From Tagaea sp. (lineage in GTDB: Bacteria; Pseudomonadota; Alphaproteobacteria; CACIAM-22H2), in the NCBI GenBank assembly GCA_965279525.1, contig CBDIIB010000005.1, positions 352,001 through 416,000 on the forward strand: a stretch of 64,000 nucleotides of DNA, in the 5' to 3' direction. A model generated the notes under the pieces. That model saw only the letters and a list, made by a program, of their open reading frames with translations. It did not search any database and was not told the origin of the DNA. Below, in pieces: positions 1 through 7,103 of this stretch (its first letter is position 1; every line of letters begins with the position of its first letter). The position numbers and the translations under genes are program-made.

Positions 1-25
1 AGATGCGTATCTCGATCAGGGTGGA

Positions 26-706
26 TTGCTTACTCGCAGAGGACCATCGATCATCCGCGACGTACGGCCGGTCACTTCTGCTCTTCCAACCAGTATTCTG
101 AAGCCTCACGATGGTGATCAGTTCTTTCAGTCTTATACATTGCGGCCGACTACGCTGCCCCGCACTAGTGGCCGGCTAACAGTAGGGTTCTCGGCCGATC
201 AATTCTCAGATGATGCAGTAGGCGAAGTATGGGAGGGGACGAATCCTGCATCTATCGGGCGGTTGCGCGAACGGCAACTTGCATCCGCATTATTGGGGGA
301 GGATTTCCCCGCACCATTCCCCAGCGAACTTGCCTATGTGCAGGCAAAAAAAGAGGGTAAAGCGCTTACTTCGTATCTAGTAATGGAGGATGGACGCACA
401 ATCATTACGGGAAAATTCGAATCAGTTGAGAACACTACTGAAAATGTAGCTGCTATAAATCCGTCCGCCAATCCGGTGGGATATTTGCAGGACCTGCGCT
501 CACGGGCACTGTCATTCGTTGACTTAAATTGCCCTCTAAGCGGCAAGGTCACATTCTGCGAGCGTCGAATGCTCGGCCCCGATATGACTGAATGGATGGT
601 TTCCTGGGCGGCAGATATGAACGGAGCGCCGGTGGCGCTGGAGCTACTGCACGAGCGGCGGTTTTCGGGCCTCGGTAGCACGGTCAATGTTGTCTTTGGC
701 GAGTAG
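26..706 (+). CDS. Hypothetical protein (true start may lie upstream of the window)
   Basis: 226-aa ORF whose stop overlaps the start of the next gene. No recognisable motif. Confidence 0.6.
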   Translation: MLTRRGPSIIRDVRPVTSALPTSILKPHDGDQFFQSYTLRPTTLPRTSGRLTVGFSADQFSDDAVGEVWEGTNPASIGRLRERQLASALLGEDFPAPFPSELAYVQAKKEGKALTSYLVMEDGRTIITGKFESVENTTENVAAINPSANPVGYLQDLRSRALSFVDLNCPLSGKVTFCERRMLGPDMTEWMVSWAADMNGAPVALELLHERRFSGLGSTVNVVFGE

Positions 707-2636
707 CCGCCGAAGCGCCGCCTTCGCGGCGGTTGCGTCCGCCGCAGCGCATGCCTTTCCATTGGCCGCGCCATGGAGTCTGGTACTCCTTTTAGTGCCA
801 TTTAGTGTTGGCCTGTTTGTTTTACGTAAGAGATCGAATCGCATCATTTGGCTGGTTCTTTGCACAAGCATTGCTGGCGCTGTTCTTGCCGGTATAGCTC
901 CGGCACCAATTGCCATTGCATCTCTCTCCTTCACAGTATTGATATTTGTTGGCGCAGCTAGCGTCGGAGCTGCGCTGCTACTACTCAACATGTCTGTGAT
1001 TGGTAGTGCTGAGATGATGCTCGCACAGACGCTTGATATGATCGGACTAGAAGCAGCTGCGCCAGCAATGTTGACAACGGCAGTCTTGGTGATCGCTCGA
1101 CCCTCCGCTATTTCCGCTGGGGTTTGTTTAGCGGCAGTCTCCGCAATAGCTGCTCTTGTTGCTGACAAAATCGCCTCTCACCCGTATGCATTAATGATCG
1201 CCGCAGCAGTTCCGGCCACCATCTTTTCTGTTGTCGTATGTTTTGTTTCCGAGTCTTCACCAAGAGCCCGCTCTCTCGTGTTTATTGCCATTGCTTTCGG
1301 CTTGCTACTGCCTTGGGCAGCTACTCCCCCGAGATCGTGGGGCGAGATATTTGTTCTATTGCCAGATGCATCGGACACATACGAGGCACAGTTCTTTAAG
1401 AACTATACCGACGCCCTCAGATTTGCAGGCATACGAGCGGAGAGGGTTACTCGACTAAACGACATACCATCAAGATCATTGGTACTCATGCCGTGGACAT
1501 CCGCAGATTTTAAATCTGCGGATGACAACGAGATGCTCAAAAGCATAGGGCAGCTAGCTCAAGGTCATCAATGGACCGTTATCGTAGGCGGGGAGCATAC
1601 CAACTTGGGCGGTGCGGCGGACCGGATAGAAGCCATGAGCGGAAAGCCTTTTCTGCGCCGAGACCTCACAGTGCCGCCGTACAATACTGATGACTCTGGT
1701 CCTTTACACGTCTCTGATCTTCGTGAGTGGCCGCATGGAAGTATTTTGAATCGCGGCGCAAGCGTCGAAATAATGTCGCTTCTCGATAAAGTGCTGTTAG
1801 CCGGAGACGGATGGTGGGCAGAGCCCGACTTGGGCGAATGGCTGTGGGTCGGTGACTATATTTGGCGTTCAGGAGAGCGCGCCGGCCGAATGGCCTTGGC
1901 AATCGCTTCAGATTCAGGCGGTGCCCGCTGGATCATTGTTGGCGACAATAGCTTTTTCCTAAGTAACCAAATTTACGCTGATCCACGTACTTTGCTTCGA
2001 TTGATTGAACTCGCCTCGCTTTGGCCTGCTCTTGTTAAAGACATTGCGATTGGATTTCTCGCTATAGCAGGTTGCTTGCTTATGCTTGCTCACGTCACGT
2101 TAGCCGAAGCTAGCATCACGATGTCTTCCGTCTTTTTTGTAGTTTCTGGCATCTATATATTTCTATTTCCAACACCAGAGAGCAGTAGGTGGAGGGATAC
2201 ATACGTTGACCAAATTGGATTTGATGAAAGAAATTTCAACCTGGCATTCACGGAGAGCCCGCTACTTACAAACAGTAGGCGCCTGATGCGATTGAAGGGT
2301 TCATTCACCGGTGAATTTGAAGTTCCTCACGGAAACGCAATTATCTTTTTGCACGTTGATGGAACGATGACGGCTGGCAAAGCACGACTTACTAACTGCC
2401 GCCGGCTAGGTGCGCTTGCGCTTGAAGAAGGGCCGTACCTGATGGACGCCCAAGCCTGCCGCGTTACAGGTGCGGATAGAATTTTGATTGGTACTCCAGA
2501 AGCTGCTGTCGCATTTTCGATTCAATACGGATTGTCTGAAGCAATTTTTATTCTGGACACCGTCTTTCTAGGGCAAAAGGCGCCATCGAGTAATGCGGAT
2601 TGGTTGATTCGGGAGATGGCGATTGAGAAACGATAA
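687..2636 (+). CDS. Multi-pass membrane protein with a soluble alpha/beta domain (DUF4350/class I glutamine amidotransferase-like, tentative)
   Basis: 649-aa ORF with several N-terminal hydrophobic segments, a soluble region containing TVIVGGEHTN and WIIVGDNSFF, two more TM segments and a C-terminal soluble domain. Confidence 0.65.
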   Translation: MLSLASSRRSAAFAAVASAAAHAFPLAAPWSLVLLLVPFSVGLFVLRKRSNRIIWLVLCTSIAGAVLAGIAPAPIAIASLSFTVLIFVGAASVGAALLLLNMSVIGSAEMMLAQTLDMIGLEAAAPAMLTTAVLVIARPSAISAGVCLAAVSAIAALVADKIASHPYALMIAAAVPATIFSVVVCFVSESSPRARSLVFIAIAFGLLLPWAATPPRSWGEIFVLLPDASDTYEAQFFKNYTDALRFAGIRAERVTRLNDIPSRSLVLMPWTSADFKSADDNEMLKSIGQLAQGHQWTVIVGGEHTNLGGAADRIEAMSGKPFLRRDLTVPPYNTDDSGPLHVSDLREWPHGSILNRGASVEIMSLLDKVLLAGDGWWAEPDLGEWLWVGDYIWRSGERAGRMALAIASDSGGARWIIVGDNSFFLSNQIYADPRTLLRLIELASLWPALVKDIAIGFLAIAGCLLMLAHVTLAEASITMSSVFFVVSGIYIFLFPTPESSRWRDTYVDQIGFDERNFNLAFTESPLLTNSRRLMRLKGSFTGEFEVPHGNAIIFLHVDGTMTAGKARLTNCRRLGALALEEGPYLMDAQACRVTGADRILIGTPEAAVAFSIQYGLSEAIFILDTVFLGQKAPSSNADWLIREMAIEKR

Positions 2637-2646
2637 ATCGCCTACG

Positions 2647-3063
2647 ATGATTGGACTACTGCCAGGTGGCGTGCCTCAACGGGAACCGTACCCTTCGGAA
2701 GACGTGTTTTTTAAAAGAAATATGCACATCTCAGGATTGGCAGCCGAAGATAATTCGGTTGTTCTAAACCCGTACAGCAATCTCTCTCCGACAGAGCGTC
2801 GCTGCGTTGCACTTAACGAAGCCGCCAGAGTTGTTATGCGGCGAGACCCTGAGTTGCAGCCCATATTCGATCTCACACCCGAACAGCTTGCTTCCTTCCA
2901 GAGCTACGGTCCCTTAGATAGCGTCAGAGCTACCGTAGCAGCGCGAATTCTTTCAGGTGATCCTAGTGCGTTGAGACCGACCGTCGACCAAACTAAGTTT
3001 GTGAAGAAACTCGCCACCGCGATGGGCCTCAAGAAGCGTAAGGCGGCCCCTTCCCCTGGCTAG
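2647..3063 (+). CDS. Hypothetical phage-like protein
   Basis: ATG at 2647, in frame with ORF 2623..3063. The segment REPYPSE..FFK...GLAAED..V.LNPYS.LS..E...VA.NEAAR resembles small uncharacterised phage proteins (recalled, not searched). Confidence 0.65.
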   Translation: MIGLLPGGVPQREPYPSEDVFFKRNMHISGLAAEDNSVVLNPYSNLSPTERRCVALNEAARVVMRRDPELQPIFDLTPEQLASFQSYGPLDSVRATVAARILSGDPSALRPTVDQTKFVKKLATAMGLKKRKAAPSPG

Positions 3064-3131: not shown

Positions 3132-3385
3132 TGTCCGTCGTCAGAATAATCGGGACGTTTTGAGGCGGCTGTTAACGGAGGCTTCGGCGCATCTGCGTTG
3201 GCAGTATTGGCGGTCGCTTGCCGATGCCAGCAAGCGGCGGTGCTCGATGGTTCTGCGCTTGATCGTCTCCCTCCTTTCCAGAATGGCCTGCCCACGTTCG
3301 GTATAGACGTTGGCCCGCGCGAGGATACTGAGGCGCTCGTGGTATCGGCAGTAGTTGTAGTGATCGACGAAGCTGCCGATGCTCG
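3132..3385 (-). pseudogene. IS3-family transposase 3' remnant with right terminal inverted repeat
   Basis: Minus-strand peptide FVDHYNYCRYHERLSILARANVYTERGQAILERRETIKRRT matches an IS3-type rve C-terminus. Terminal sequence TGTCCGTCGTCAGAATAAT starts at 3132. Confidence 0.75.
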
Positions 3386-3397
3386 CGTAGTGAAGAG

Positions 3398-3631
3398 TCA
3401 CTTCGCAGCAGTTGCCCTGAAACGCCCCCCAGTCAGAGCGGCGCGTAACTCTTTCTGGAACCGCCCCTGTATCTGAATCGTACCCTTCTTGGGCCACCAG
3501 TTGAGTATTTGCCCAAGGTCAGTCGTGAACGTCGCCCGCCCATCCTGGCCGCCCAAAGCCCAAGTACCGACGATACCGAGCCGAGTGATCTCATTGCGTA
3601 GCTCACTGATGGTTCCTACGAATGGCTCCAT
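3398..3631 (-). CDS. Small hypothetical protein
   Basis: 77-aa ORF with AGAAGGA upstream. The GQILNWWPKKGTIQIQG motif resembles the N-terminal domain of TIR-like predicted nucleotide-binding proteins. Confidence 0.6.
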   Translation of the reverse strand: MEPFVGTISELRNEITRLGIVGTWALGGQDGRATFTTDLGQILNWWPKKGTIQIQGRFQKELRAALTGGRFRATAAK

Positions 3632-4086
3632 TCGATGTGATCCTTCTCTGTTGACGGTCGGCTAGGCCCCGTTGCCATGCCATTCGAGTCAGGAGAGTCG
3701 CCACACACTGGCAACCACCCTCTTGGTACCTACCTAGCCAGATTGGAACGGCCGACTCAGTGACTCTCTAATGGCGATTGAGGCCCTATGGACTTGGGCT
3801 TTCTAGGACCCCCGTGGGGGATATGCCTTGCCTCGTGTGCCTGCCTTATTGGCAGATCAGAAGGGGCATCTCCTGTTAAGGCCTTGATACTGAGTCATTG
3901 TCCGTAACAGTGACCATCGAATCCAGTAACTGATCTTAGTTATAGTTATTACTATTATTCTTCTCGCAAAAAGGGCCGTAATTTCCCTCGGATCTAGGCG
4001 GTCTCTCCCTTTCTATCTTCCAAATTCATCCCTACAGCACCCTTACAATGGGGTAGTGCGCTTCCAACCGTGGGCGAAGCCCACAG

Positions 4087-5532
4087 TCACACCAACTCCT
4101 TCCGATAGGCCCCCCGAAGGGGGTAATCATTCTTTCCATCCGAGATCATAAACAGACTGGCATCCATAAGATTGGATCCATCGATCATCTGCTTACCGTC
4201 ACGATCTGTGATCTTCAGGCTAATCAGTACCCCGAATCGTTCCTGGAACACTTGGACCATGACCCTCTGAAGCTCCTCAGAACGCTCCTCCGCAATGATG
4301 AAGCTGTCGTGGACCGGGAGTACGGGGATCCCTTCGTCTGCGAAGTGCAGCATGACCGTCTCTGCGAGCTGGCTCTCCCAGAACTGCATGGTCTTGCCTA
4401 CGCCCGTATGGAACAGGTCGCTCAGCGGAGCGAAGTGCAATTTGACCCTCTCGACGAACTCGCCCCGTGTGACGCCGAGTACTGTCTCGTCATAACCCTC
4501 TTCCAGGTCGAAGCTCTTGAGATGAGGTTGACGAACCCATCCCCTCTTATCGTTGATCAGGGCATTGAAGGTCTTCTTCACCCATATCCGAACGATTGGC
4601 GGGGCATCCGGGAACGCGTCGTACACATCGGCAGGAATTGGCATGCTCCGGGATGCGTAGAGCATGCTCGGGTGTAGGCCGACATAGTCCACTTCGACCG
4701 TCTGATACCCATCGATGGTCAGATATGGTCGGTACTCCTTAGGCATGTTCTGCCATGAGGATTGGAAGAATCGACCACCGCGCTGGAAGCTTGCATCGTT
4801 GAACTTGCGCACAAGAGTTCGCTTGCGTGGATCGAATGGTCGACGGAGCTTCGTGCCTATCATGCGCCGGTTGAGATCGATCAAATCGCCGGGCAAGAGA
4901 TCCATTGCAATCTTGGAGTCTCGGAGTACCGCGTTGATGGTCCCAATATTCGCCCGCTTCGCCTCTGTTTCAGGCGTCGGATCGAACTGGATCGGTTTCT
5001 TCATCGCGTCCCGAAGCTCGATATCCGCGTGCCAGTGGTCAACGTGCTCGATCTCATCTGGGGAGAAATCGGGAATTGCTACGATCCGCTCGATCAGGCT
5101 CGGCGTAGCTCGTATCTTCGTGTTGAAGTACATCGCGGCACTCGGCGCATACAATCCTTTCTTGGCAATCTCGATAAGCCCGGCAGTCCGCAGTCCTTCG
5201 TACGCTTGGATCATCGGGCGATAGGTTATCCCTCGCTGGGCATATCGACTGGTTGCCGCATATTTGCTCCGATTGAGATCGATGCCGACGGTGCACCCGG
5301 GCAGATTTTCATGCGCAAGAATCAGGTTCAGAAGGAGAGCGCGAAGAGCTGCAGTAAGGCGTTCAAGCTCCATCTTGGAGCGCTTGCGACGACCCGAAGC
5401 CGTGTCAATCTCAGTGGCGATCTGTGAGACGAGGACATCGAAGCCCTCGTTCTCAATCACGTAGCTGGGGTCAATCGGAACAGAAAGTATTTGGGACGGG
5501 CTGACTGCATCACTCAAGTTGCGATCCTTCAT
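4087..5532 (-). CDS. Divergent family-A (PolA/T7 superfamily, TV-Pol-like) polymerase lacking exonuclease domains
   Basis: Motifs in PolA order: GGRFF..WQNMP, motif A VEVDYVGLH, motif B RIWVKKTFNALIN, QFWES and motif C LPVHDSFI. Confidence 0.75.
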   Translation of the reverse strand: MKDRNLSDAVSPSQILSVPIDPSYVIENEGFDVLVSQIATEIDTASGRRKRSKMELERLTAALRALLLNLILAHENLPGCTVGIDLNRSKYAATSRYAQRGITYRPMIQAYEGLRTAGLIEIAKKGLYAPSAAMYFNTKIRATPSLIERIVAIPDFSPDEIEHVDHWHADIELRDAMKKPIQFDPTPETEAKRANIGTINAVLRDSKIAMDLLPGDLIDLNRRMIGTKLRRPFDPRKRTLVRKFNDASFQRGGRFFQSSWQNMPKEYRPYLTIDGYQTVEVDYVGLHPSMLYASRSMPIPADVYDAFPDAPPIVRIWVKKTFNALINDKRGWVRQPHLKSFDLEEGYDETVLGVTRGEFVERVKLHFAPLSDLFHTGVGKTMQFWESQLAETVMLHFADEGIPVLPVHDSFIIAEERSEELQRVMVQVFQERFGVLISLKITDRDGKQMIDGSNLMDASLFMISDGKNDYPLRGAYRKELV

Positions 5533-5770: not shown

Positions 5771-6793
5771 TCAGGGAACTGCATCCGGTGGTGACAGCAG
5801 TACCGGGCCAGATTCGGTAGCAACTTGCTTGGCCGATAGGCATGCGAGCTTCTTCGCAACATCTTCAGGCCGAAGATGCGTGTAGCGAAACAGCATGCGC
5901 GGATCCCGGTGCCCGGAGATCAGGGCGACTTCGGGGATGCTCAACCCGGCTTCGAAGAACCGGCTAACAGCCTCGTGGCGCAGGTCGTGAAAATGTAGAT
6001 CCTCGATCCCAGCTCGACGCACTGCGCGATACCACCTCATTTGGATTGCCCTCGGACTCCACTCGAATATGCGATGCCCCTCTCTGCACGGAAGGCTCTG
6101 AAGGATAGCTACGGCAACAGGAGTAAGCGGGATAGTTCGAGGGTAACCGTTCTTGGCTTCCCTAACGACGAGGAGACTAGAGGCTAGATCAATATCGGTC
6201 GGCTCAAGTCGGACAAGCTCGCCCCTTCGCAGGCCGGTCTCCAGCGCGAACAAGACAAGGCCATGGAACTTGGGATCGAGGGCCGCCAGCAATAGCCGCA
6301 TTTCCCCAGGCGCTATTCGCCGTGTCCGATGCCTGCCTGCCGCAGGCTTGCGAACCTGAATGAGGGCATCCGCCATCGGCATCGACCATTCGCGATGGGC
6401 ATACCGCAGAATTGTCTGCAGCAAACCAAGCTCCCGCCGGACAGTCTCGGTCGAACACGCAGCTAGGCGGCGATCACGATATTGGGCAAGGCAGGAGGCC
6501 GGAATCTGATGCATGGGAAGATGCATCCATTTTTCTCGCAGCATGACCGCGAGTAGCCCCACGCAATTCTCTTCGCGCCGCATCGAGACGGCAACTTCGG
6601 TTCGATAGCGTTCGACTACGTCGATCAAGGGTGGGGCAGTCAGAACCAAGGCCTCCCCGAGGTCGACCCGACGCTCGTGGAGCCGCGCCCATTGCTGGGC
6701 ATCCTGACGTGTTGAAAAGGTCTTGCTGAGCTTGTGTCCTGCGCGACGGACCTGAACCTGGTACATCGAGCCGCGACGACGAATGGTAGCCAT
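5771..6793 (-). CDS. Site-specific tyrosine integrase (Rci/HP1-like)
   Basis: N-terminal arm domain MATIRRRG..YQVQVRR. Catalytic motifs ETGLRRGE, K, FHDLRH and SGH...MLFRY. ATG at 6793. Confidence 0.92.
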   Translation of the reverse strand: MATIRRRGSMYQVQVRRAGHKLSKTFSTRQDAQQWARLHERRVDLGEALVLTAPPLIDVVERYRTEVAVSMRREENCVGLLAVMLREKWMHLPMHQIPASCLAQYRDRRLAACSTETVRRELGLLQTILRYAHREWSMPMADALIQVRKPAAGRHRTRRIAPGEMRLLLAALDPKFHGLVLFALETGLRRGELVRLEPTDIDLASSLLVVREAKNGYPRTIPLTPVAVAILQSLPCREGHRIFEWSPRAIQMRWYRAVRRAGIEDLHFHDLRHEAVSRFFEAGLSIPEVALISGHRDPRMLFRYTHLRPEDVAKKLACLSAKQVATESGPVLLSPPDAVP

Positions 6794-6795
6794 GC

Positions 6796-6823
6796 TGTGA
6801 CACCCGTGTGACACGCGTGACCA
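6796..6823. repeat. Short direct repeats TGTGACAC x2 plus GTGACCA; likely integrase arm-binding sites
   Basis: TGTGACAC at 6796 and 6807 and GTGACCA at 6817, lying between the integrase start and the island junction. Confidence 0.55.
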
Positions 6824-6845
6824 GCAACCGGGCTAACCCTTTGAC

Positions 6846-6927
6846 AAAAAGAAAGGGCCGCGCCCGAAGGCACGGCCCAAGTTTAGGGAGGAAACGCCCA
6901 CGAAACGGCCCGGAGGCCATTTCGAGC
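6846..6927 (-). ncRNA. suhB: suhB/MmgR (alpha-r8)-family small RNA
   Basis: Minus strand reads: hairpin CGAAATGGCC-TCCG-GGCCGTTTCG, conserved core GGGCGTTTCCTCCCTAAACTT, then terminator GGGCCGTGCC-TTCG-GGCGCGGCCC followed by TTTCTTTTT. The 5' end is approximate. Confidence 0.85.
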
Positions 6928-6940
6928 TGCGACAAATCAA

Positions 6941-7103
6941 TGTCGCACTGCACAATTTAATTGTTGCGGCGCAAAAATCAAGGGCAATTATGCGGTGACC
7001 ATCTGAAATCTCATGATTAATTTGTAGTACTTCGATTATCCACCTGATTTATTTGTGCTATTCGAGGCCCTCTCAGACCCCCTCCCTTGCCGCAATGCAG
7101 CAT
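6941..7103. promoter_or_regulatory. Three PhaR/AniA-like boxes between the sRNA and mlaE
   Basis: TGTCGCACTGCACAA (6941), TTGTTGCGGCGCAAAA (6961) and TTGCCGCAATGCAGCAT (~7087-7103) resemble the TGC-rich PhaR/AniA motif known upstream of mmgR. Confidence 0.55.

Follow-up and report, generated by a model that had tools for sequence, protein, structure and literature searches.

We analysed a 64,000-nucleotide (nt) stretch of the genome of Tagaea sp. (the window; contig CBDIIB010000005.1), which carries, on an integrative island that spans its left end, the gene of a small polymerase of the TV-Pol type. Open reading frame (ORF) analysis identified this gene as a 481-amino-acid (aa) ORF with an ATG start on the minus strand, at 4087..5532 (protein P0001), the plus strand over the same interval being full of stops; its assignment draws on the ORF and its translation, on homologues and on an AlphaFold2 model. 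The translation holds DYVGLH at residues 282-287, RIWVKKTFNALIN at 315-327 and VHDSF at 407-411. From the N-terminus, a winged-helix-like domain (residues ~25-160, 5053..5460, minus strand), delimited by the fold of the isolated domain and considered a putative DNA-targeting head, is followed by a minimal family-A core (residues ~165-445, 4198..5040, minus strand), which was delimited with Foldseek and VIA-align and comprises a two-helix thumb, an Arg-bearing beta-hairpin, a palm and helical fingers. Within the core, and likewise on the minus strand, four motifs were located by their conservation in 258 family sequences, namely, GGR with the beta-hairpin Arg (residues 252-254, 4771..4779), aligned to TGR of the host Pol I; motif A, EVDYVGLH from E280 through D282 to H287 (4672..4695), aligned to DYSQIE; motif B, i.e. 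the O-helix, from R315 through K319 to N327 (4552..4590); and motif C, with H408, D409 and S410 inside VHDSF (4300..4314).

For the 481-aa protein, Pfam gave no credible match, with PF00476 (DNA_pol_A) silent at E up to 1, and NCBIfam gave no match; PF00476 finds the ordinary Pol I of the host elsewhere in the genome at 518 bits, and the gene analysed here is single-copy in its genome. The protein matches PHROG 4756, a family of unassigned function (E 5.2e-38). Comparison of sequence with solved structures yielded nothing usable (best E 1.8 with the protein and 0.34 with the family profile, the latter being a weak match to the winged helix-turn-helix of AspA). The fold is far more informative. 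The AlphaFold2 model of the whole protein, built on a 40-sequence alignment, has a pLDDT of 86.7 and a pTM of 0.86, and the 48 rows that Foldseek lists for the PDB consist entirely of family-A DNA polymerases (best E 5.4e-6, probability 1.00), among them Bst, Taq, the apicoplast polymerase (apPol), Mycobacterium smegmatis Pol1 and the polymerase of phage G20c. In VIA-align, which is independent of Foldseek, the top 18 rows are either family-A DNA polymerases (DNAPs) or the RNA polymerases (RNAPs) of T7, mitochondria and N4, with Z from 13.0 to 7.2; these family-A matches span residues ~165-450, with about 240-260 residues aligned. The best match is apPol (Z 13.0, root-mean-square deviation (rmsd) 4.0, 245 residues aligned), followed by yeast mitochondrial RNAP (Z 12.5, rmsd 3.9, 237 aligned), Pol nu (Z 12.5), Klenow (Z 11.4), T7 DNAP (Z 11.2), T7 RNAP (Z 10.8) and N4 RNAPII (Z 7.7). 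In the model, the thumb is formed by helices 187-205 and 214-225, directly before the hairpin (strands 241-244 and 252-256), with the alignments to family-A folds beginning at residues 162-175, and the finger helices (286-398) sit between palm strands. No exonuclease domain was found in the protein by Pfam, NCBIfam or the fold search. Thus, as modelled, this is an exonuclease-less polymerase of the family-A fold. The sequence-only reading had asked for a comparison with Klenow and T7 RNAP; both are among the VIA-align matches of the core, whose PolA-type palm Foldseek detects as well.

The same reading had seen no exonuclease motifs in the N-terminus and had proposed a winged helix there, of which the first holds and the second is favoured by the model: this part has neither a Pfam or NCBIfam match nor a nuclease fold, and the head (residues ~25-157) matches winged-helix proteins rather than polymerases. 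Folded alone, the head reaches a pLDDT of 91.2. Its best VIA-align match is ribosomal protein eS19 (Z 7.2, rmsd 3.5, 106 residues aligned), and the matches below it are mainly the MarR, PadR, HxlR and GntR regulators and the winged helices of Rpa2, ORC, TFE and TubR. There are 58 chains at Z of at least 5 and none at Z of at least 8, modest scores that VIA-align classes as a "common arrangement". The matches agree in kind, but with every chain below Z 8 the assignment is suggestive rather than decisive. The model therefore suggests that residues ~25-160 form a winged-helix-like domain, putatively a DNA-binding head. Phage relatives share the whole architecture, with 11 BFVD rows aligned over 425-487 columns (E 1.7e-24 to 3.3e-16) for proteins of 400-450 aa.

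Conservation was assessed in a set of 258 sequences, that is, the query and the hits of a word-indexed and an exhaustive search, none dropped, at ~22-48% identity to the query. In the hairpin, G253 is present in 258/258 and R254 in 257/258; in family-A enzymes, the Arg of the beta-hairpin contacts the template. Both E280 and D282 are invariant (258/258 each), and D409 is found in 255/258, the remaining three being gaps, so that the catalytic Asp residues of motifs A and C are intact, as had been read from the sequence. Flanking D409, H408 occurs in 254/258 and S410 in 253/258; in the fingers, the counts are 237/258 for D302, 247/258 for R315, 256/258 for K319, 184/258 for N323 and 238/258 for N327, with Tyr at the last position in a single sequence (1/258). 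At position 287, His is found in 242/258, the others including Asn (6), Gln (3), Ser (2), Leu (1) and Tyr (1); there is no Glu among the six commonest residues, which together account for 255/258. On these alignments, the altered active site is a trait of the family and not a local mutation.

When the family was compared by hhalign with 30 Pol I polymerase domains from genomes of the phylum, the matches were weak yet collinear (E 0.05 and 0.09) and paired GGRF with TGRL, WQNMP with LQNIP, DYVGLH with DYSQIE, the R and K of the O-helix with R and K, and VHDS with VHDE; given these E values, the link to family A rests on structure. Because DYVGLH is paired with DYSQIE, the position of the Pol I steric-gate Glu corresponds to H287; the replacement of the gate Glu by His, opposite DYSQIE of the host Pol I, is thus as the sequence-only reading had described it. 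E710 and F762 of Pol I are cited as ribonucleotide-discriminating residues in a study of CcPol (PMC7581432). In motif B, the claimed replacement of Tyr by Asn stands only in part. Without gaps, K319+8 is N327, with the same spacing as R627/K631/Y639 of T7 RNAP, whereas both hhalign runs introduce one gap after K319, by which I326 comes opposite the Tyr and N327 opposite the Gly next to it; the register relative to F762/Y766 of Pol I is therefore ambiguous by one residue, and there is no Tyr in either register. In motif C, VHDSF (407-411) compares with IHDSF at 810-814 of T7 RNAP (the record reads IHDSFGT at 810-816), the Glu of Pol I (HDEL in the host) being replaced by Ser as in T7 RNAP. E280 lies on the same strand as D282 (residues 276-283 in the model) and, judging from this placement, may replace the third carboxylate that is held by motif C in Pol I. 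In T7 RNAP, the fifth residue beyond the motif A Asp is Gly; an hhalign comparison with T7 RNAP alone gave no match (probability 0.3).

The TV-Pols were defined by Iyer, Abhiman and Aravind in 2008 (Biol Direct 3:39; PMC2579912) through four elements, namely, a two-helix thumb, an Arg-bearing hairpin, an RRM palm with two Asp, and fingers with an Asp and RxxxK, and were described as never fused or linked to nuclease domains. All of these features are present here: the two-helix thumb lies N-terminal to the palm in the model, the hairpin carries R254, the RRM-like palm holds D282 and D409 and was matched as a fold, the fingers with D302, R315 and K319 follow the first palm strand, and the protein is nuclease-free. 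A subset, 'TV-PolN', consists of proteins of 400-600 residues with an extra N-terminal globular domain, whose genes adjoin lambda-type integrases, gamma-delta resolvases or RNaseH-fold transposases amid operons of restriction-modification (R-M) systems, in bacteria that include many Rhodobacterales and Rhizobiales (PMC2579912). Such a recombinase neighbourhood exists at the locus itself, where the neighbour is an integrase, and in 49 of the 80 loci compared (see below). Taken together, these features make it very probable that the 481-aa protein belongs to the TV-Pol family, its place there being the N-domain branch. Iyer et al. predicted primase-polymerase activity for TV-Pols and proposed a primase- or RNAP-like ancestor for Pol I and T7 RNAP; they also placed CcPol in the family and listed phage Ma-LMM01 as a carrier (PMC2579912). 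According to Bebel et al. (2020, PMC7581432), CcPol, which is encoded by staphylococcal SCCmec, can by itself only extend primers and has to be in complex with the small protein MP in order to prime, which it does with dNTPs; DNA is bound by this separate OB-fold subunit, CcPol keeps the Glu of Pol I (its E174) and the equivalent of F762, and no other TV-Pol had been characterised.

The family is large. A word-indexed search (7999 scored candidates) yielded 111 proteins at E up to 0.001, with an identity of 42% for the best; names are lacking for nearly all of them, and UniRef labels two as 'DNA-directed DNA polymerase family A palm domain-containing protein'. In an exhaustive search of 1.84 billion representatives (clusters at the 50% identity level), 6194 were found at E up to 0.001, 3574 at up to 1e-10 and 343 at up to 1e-30. 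The polymerase had seemed possibly novel from its sequence; with a family already described and comprising 6194 representative clusters, it is not. Of 263 stretches picked out of species genomes by pattern matching, 243 contain the gene of a relative, mostly in Rhodobacterales, Rhizobiales and SAR116, with a few in Burkholderiales, Flavobacteriales, Opitutia and gammaproteobacteria. Within the genus, the family profile finds the polymerase in one of 21 genomes, that of the window itself. Relatives at <30% identity occur in 183 phage records, from Rheinheimera, Vibrio, Aeromonas, Pseudoalteromonas and Shewanella phages of ~80-145 kb, and in only 3 plasmid records; residence on small plasmids was considered and rejected on account of the latter number and of the terminal overlaps, which were found in 0 of 24 whole short contigs.

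Three of the phage loci were inspected (Aeromonas phage vB_AceP_PAc, Vibrio phage 166E36-1 and Rheinheimera phage Barba19A). The homologue is ~420-440 aa long, is annotated as hypothetical and lies among runs of small unnamed genes, with NAD-salvage genes nearby in two of the three and a Dda-like helicase at 1.5 kb in one. No recombinase is annotated within 5 kb on either side in these three loci, so that the phage copies may serve the phage itself. A search among longer proteins for helicase fusions found none and returned one protein, P0259 (931 aa, metagenomic), in which a TV-Pol core (28% identity over 75% of the core) is joined to an RVT_1 domain (E 3.8e-10). As the sole longer relative found and a single cluster, in which a fusion by gene calling is possible, P0259 is weak evidence. 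In BFVD, giant and algal virus proteins of 776-1054 aa align to the core over 240-321 columns; these come from Catovirus, from Pyramimonas orientalis virus ('Replication origin-binding protein domain-containing protein') and from one unnamed source, and their appearance is suggestive of polymerase-helicase fusions of the Sputnik V13 kind.

The polymerase gene lies in a low-GC stretch (0.49-0.56 vs ~0.68 around) that extends from ~3.5 kb left of the window to window position ~6900. This island (10.4 kb) is bounded by exact 105-nt direct repeats, 10,375 bp apart, each of which contains a full-length match to RF00519 (suhB/mmgR; 52.5 and 52.1 bits vs a gathering score of 41). The left repeat, attL, with one mmgR copy, is located 3.4 kb left of the window (G000:C5:348468-348572; 968-1072 in the coordinates of the extended locus L082), and the right repeat, attR, with an mmgR/suhB copy on the minus strand, at 6843..6947 (L082 11343-11447). 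A tyrosine integrase of 347 aa (5771..6814, minus strand; PF00589, E 2.1e-22) abuts the right repeat, and the polymerase gene follows 238 bp downstream on the same strand. In two genomes of the same genus (G041 and G037), the site is empty, a single att copy joining the left flank directly to the right flank, and in at least six more congeners an att copy stands immediately before the right flank. The island is thus real and recent, and was inserted site-specifically into the small RNA (sRNA) gene mmgR, leaving two full-length copies. The copy beside the integrase keeps its native upstream flank, and the other copy now has island DNA upstream. A tRNA gene was considered as the insertion target and rejected, as there is none in the window and the nearest, tRNA-Val, lies 2.7 kb from attL. 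In the sequencing runs, the island assembles as a single unitig of 10,330 nt, whose depth relative to that of the left-flank unitig differs by run (6.5/13.4, 5.8/2.6 and 14.6/18.6); unitig depths are not copy numbers, and the differences are only a pointer to what may be variable presence or an extra-chromosomal form.

The polymerase is the only replication-type gene of the 10.4-kb island. The remaining cargo, which continues left of the window, forms a plus-strand operon (L082 1554-7563, i.e. window -2946..3063) with no obvious link to mobility or defence and encodes a redoxin, a 120-aa protein, an 892-aa protein with DUF4350/ABC_transp_aux, a 649-aa polytopic membrane protein and a 146-aa protein; the end of the 892-aa protein and the last two proteins fall within the window (1..3063, plus strand). 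Five 12-nt tandem repeats occur in the gene of the 120-aa protein (L082 2408-2467). No PADLOC model matches the polymerase, the cargo or the neighbours. On the minus strand, at 3141..3497, a 118-aa ORF, on which Pfam is silent, groups by BLASTP with the C-terminal part of a 326-aa transposase with rve and helix-turn-helix domains from locus L021 and therefore looks like the remnant of an rve-type transposase. Between this fragment and the polymerase gene, ~590 bp are non-coding, with a short AT-rich stretch at ~3925-3965. A scan for promoters and terminators gave nothing above shuffled sequences except the terminator of mmgR itself.

Neighbourhoods were compared in 80 loci (79 fetched and that of the window) by BLASTP clustering of all ORFs that have at least 70 aa and lie no more than 6 kb from the polymerase. 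Tyrosine integrases, in two size classes of ~330-400 and 525-610 aa, were found in 46/80 loci, gamma-delta-type resolvases in 13/80 and rve transposases in 4/80, with any of the three kinds of recombinase in 49/80. When only the loci with at least 3 kb of sequence to each side are counted (42), an integrase or a resolvase is found in 33, and in 30/80 loci the recombinase is at most 1.3 kb from the polymerase. Genes of type I and type III R-M systems occur in 14/80 loci, and, this cargo aside, the neighbours include no conspicuous nuclease cluster. Every remaining cluster is confined to at most 6/80 loci, the helicase-like clusters being R-M Res subunits only; a partner shorter than 70 aa, or one diverged beyond the reach of BLASTP, would escape this clustering.

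The explanation that we consider probable is that of a self-targeting primase-polymerase which initiates replication once the island has been excised, its winged helix acting as MP does for CcPol. The integrase would excise the island, the winged-helix head would bind the DNA of the element, and the core would start DNA synthesis without a primer and extend the product briefly; the 3' end of the product would then be passed to the host replisome, or the small circle would be copied. The DNA-binding role that belongs to a separate OB-fold subunit in CcPol-MP would, in this scheme, be built into the same chain. The guess of a primase-polymerase or RNA-making enzyme, put forward from the sequence, is partly supported, in that it equals the prediction of Iyer et al. 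and fits an island linked to an integrase. Several observations, however, weigh against self-primed replication. No iterons or origin-like repeats were found in the 590-bp stretch downstream of the polymerase gene or in the 238-bp spacer to the integrase; the contigs of four sequencing runs contain no joint of an excised circle or of an emptied site; and 0 of 24 whole short contigs were circular. As no non-recombinase cluster exceeds 6/80 loci, there appears to be no conserved helicase or SSB-like (single-stranded DNA-binding) partner, and without a helicase partner the unwinding of a 10-kb circle is unexplained. With respect to kinship, links to Pol I at the sequence level are weak (hhalign E 0.05-0.09), the family profile finds nothing in phage Ma-LMM01 at E up to 1, and the head is modelled as an alpha+beta winged helix, unlike the all-helical N-domain predicted by Iyer et al. 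Finally, no assay of the N-domain TV-Pol branch was found in the literature, as judged by titles and the beginnings of abstracts; the full-text matches were the 2008 paper, the CcPol-MP papers, work on comparative genomics, virophages and polinton-like viruses, and some unrelated articles matched by chance.

Alternatively, the clade could use NTPs, the enzyme being an RNA primase or a small promoter-specific transcriptase of the element or phage, which we regard as rather unlikely. Under this view, His together with the O-helix Asn/Ile would stand where Pol I has the Glu, Phe and Tyr that select dNTPs, and the gate Glu is indeed lost family-wide (His in 242/258, with no Glu among the residues listed). 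However, a bulky His could block the 2'-OH as Glu does, in contrast to the Gly at D+5 of T7 RNAP, so that, on the sequence, relaxed sugar selection by H287 may not follow. Similarly, motif C reads HDSF as at 811-814 of T7 RNAP and not HDE as in Pol I, and the single-subunit RNAPs rank with the DNAPs in fold comparison (mitochondrial RNAP Z 12.5, T7 RNAP 10.8, N4 RNAPII 7.7), but the Tyr at K+8 (Y639 of T7 RNAP) is missing. A DNA-binding head at the N-terminus is reminiscent of the N-domain with which T7 RNAP binds promoters (PMC10061031), and the phage homologues lie amid small unnamed genes, outside replication modules; nevertheless, a specificity loop or a large promoter domain would not be expected to fit into 481 aa, and the only assayed TV-Pol found in the literature consulted prefers dNTPs (PMC7581432). 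For the clade as a whole, defined by the His gate, the lack of the motif B Tyr, HDSF and the E-x-D...D triad, we likewise hold ribonucleotide use to be doubtful.

It is quite improbable that the enzyme is solely a primer-dependent DNA polymerase, filling gaps or making repairs at integration, excision or replicative transposition with no priming. In favour of it, CcPol alone only extends and requires MP to prime (PMC7581432), no MP-like partner is conserved in the present family, and the tight linkage to recombinases (at most 1.3 kb in 30/80 loci) would suit such a role; however, integration by tyrosine recombinases leaves no gaps by the established mechanism, the host already has Pol I, and the conserved putative DNA-binding head suggests site-specific targeting over general repair. 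A part in defence or conflict, e.g. as an effector within an anti-phage or anti-plasmid module that the island would carry as cargo, is very improbable. R-M systems do occur in 14/80 loci, but R-M genes are typical cargo of any island; and although P0259 is fused to a reverse transcriptase domain and large lytic phages carry homologues (183 records), PADLOC matches neither the polymerase nor its neighbours, and the gene that regularly accompanies it is that of a recombinase rather than of a sensor or effector. That the protein is an inactive relic acting only as a DNA-binding regulator is hardly credible: the Pfam DNA_pol_A model does fail to recognise it, but all catalytic positions are strongly conserved over 258 sequences that are only ~22-48% identical to the query.

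With a self-priming polymerase as the favoured explanation, this locus bears on the primase-polymerase prediction for TV-Pols, which has been standing since 2008, and on whether a fused winged helix can replace the separate SSB subunit of CcPol-MP. The family is large (6194 clusters, 243 genome stretches and 183 phage records) and yet is covered by no model in Pfam or NCBIfam. With His in place of the Glu gate throughout the clade, it offers a natural experiment on sugar selection in family A. If ribonucleotide use were true, this would be the smallest known RNA polymerase or primase of the family-A fold, a core of ~280 residues aimed by a fused winged helix, and a present-day model of the ancestral enzyme from which, in the proposal of Iyer et al., Pol I and T7 RNAP arose. 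In its own genome, the gene is the marker of a recent island acquisition, through which the regulatory sRNA gene mmgR was duplicated.

Among known systems, the N-domain subset of TV-Pols is the closest in kind, sharing a nuclease-free minimal core, an N-terminal domain, alphaproteobacterial hosts, recombinase neighbours and islands with R-M systems; the His gate, the Glu at -2 and the HDS motif, however, are absent from the main-text discussion of 2008 (PMC2579912). CcPol-MP (PMC7581432; Rice 2023, PMC10061031) is likewise an A-family core on an integrative element with a site-specific recombinase, in which priming needs an added DNA-binding module. CcPol-MP is distant from the island polymerase, and the arrangement differs, in that an adjacent OB-fold partner and a helicase in the operon were not found here as conserved neighbours, the putative DNA-binding module being fused instead.

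With Pol I (PF00476), the island polymerase shares the fold and the order of the motifs (the TGR hairpin, D-Y-S of motif A, RxxxK of the O-helix and VHD of motif C), but it lacks both the 5'-3' and the 3'-5' exonuclease, its core is smaller (~280 vs ~400 residues), His stands for the Glu gate and HDS for HDE, the motif B Tyr is missing, and PF00476 does not recognise it. The resemblance to T7 RNAP, mitochondrial RNAP and N4 RNAPII extends to the fold (Z 12.5 to 7.7, on par with DNAPs), to a motif C with identical HDSF and to an N-terminal nucleic-acid-binding domain, putative in the present protein, before the core; in contrast, the island polymerase is at most half the size of these enzymes, has no Tyr at K+8 and has His rather than Gly at D+5. 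Likeness of another sort is offered by piPolB, the primer-independent family-B polymerase that is the hallmark of pipolins, i.e. small integrative elements with tyrosine recombinases and flanking direct repeats. This likeness is one of working and not of kinship, as piPolB has the family-B fold and is unrelated in sequence; the polymerase described here is thus a candidate family-A counterpart of these self-priming elements.

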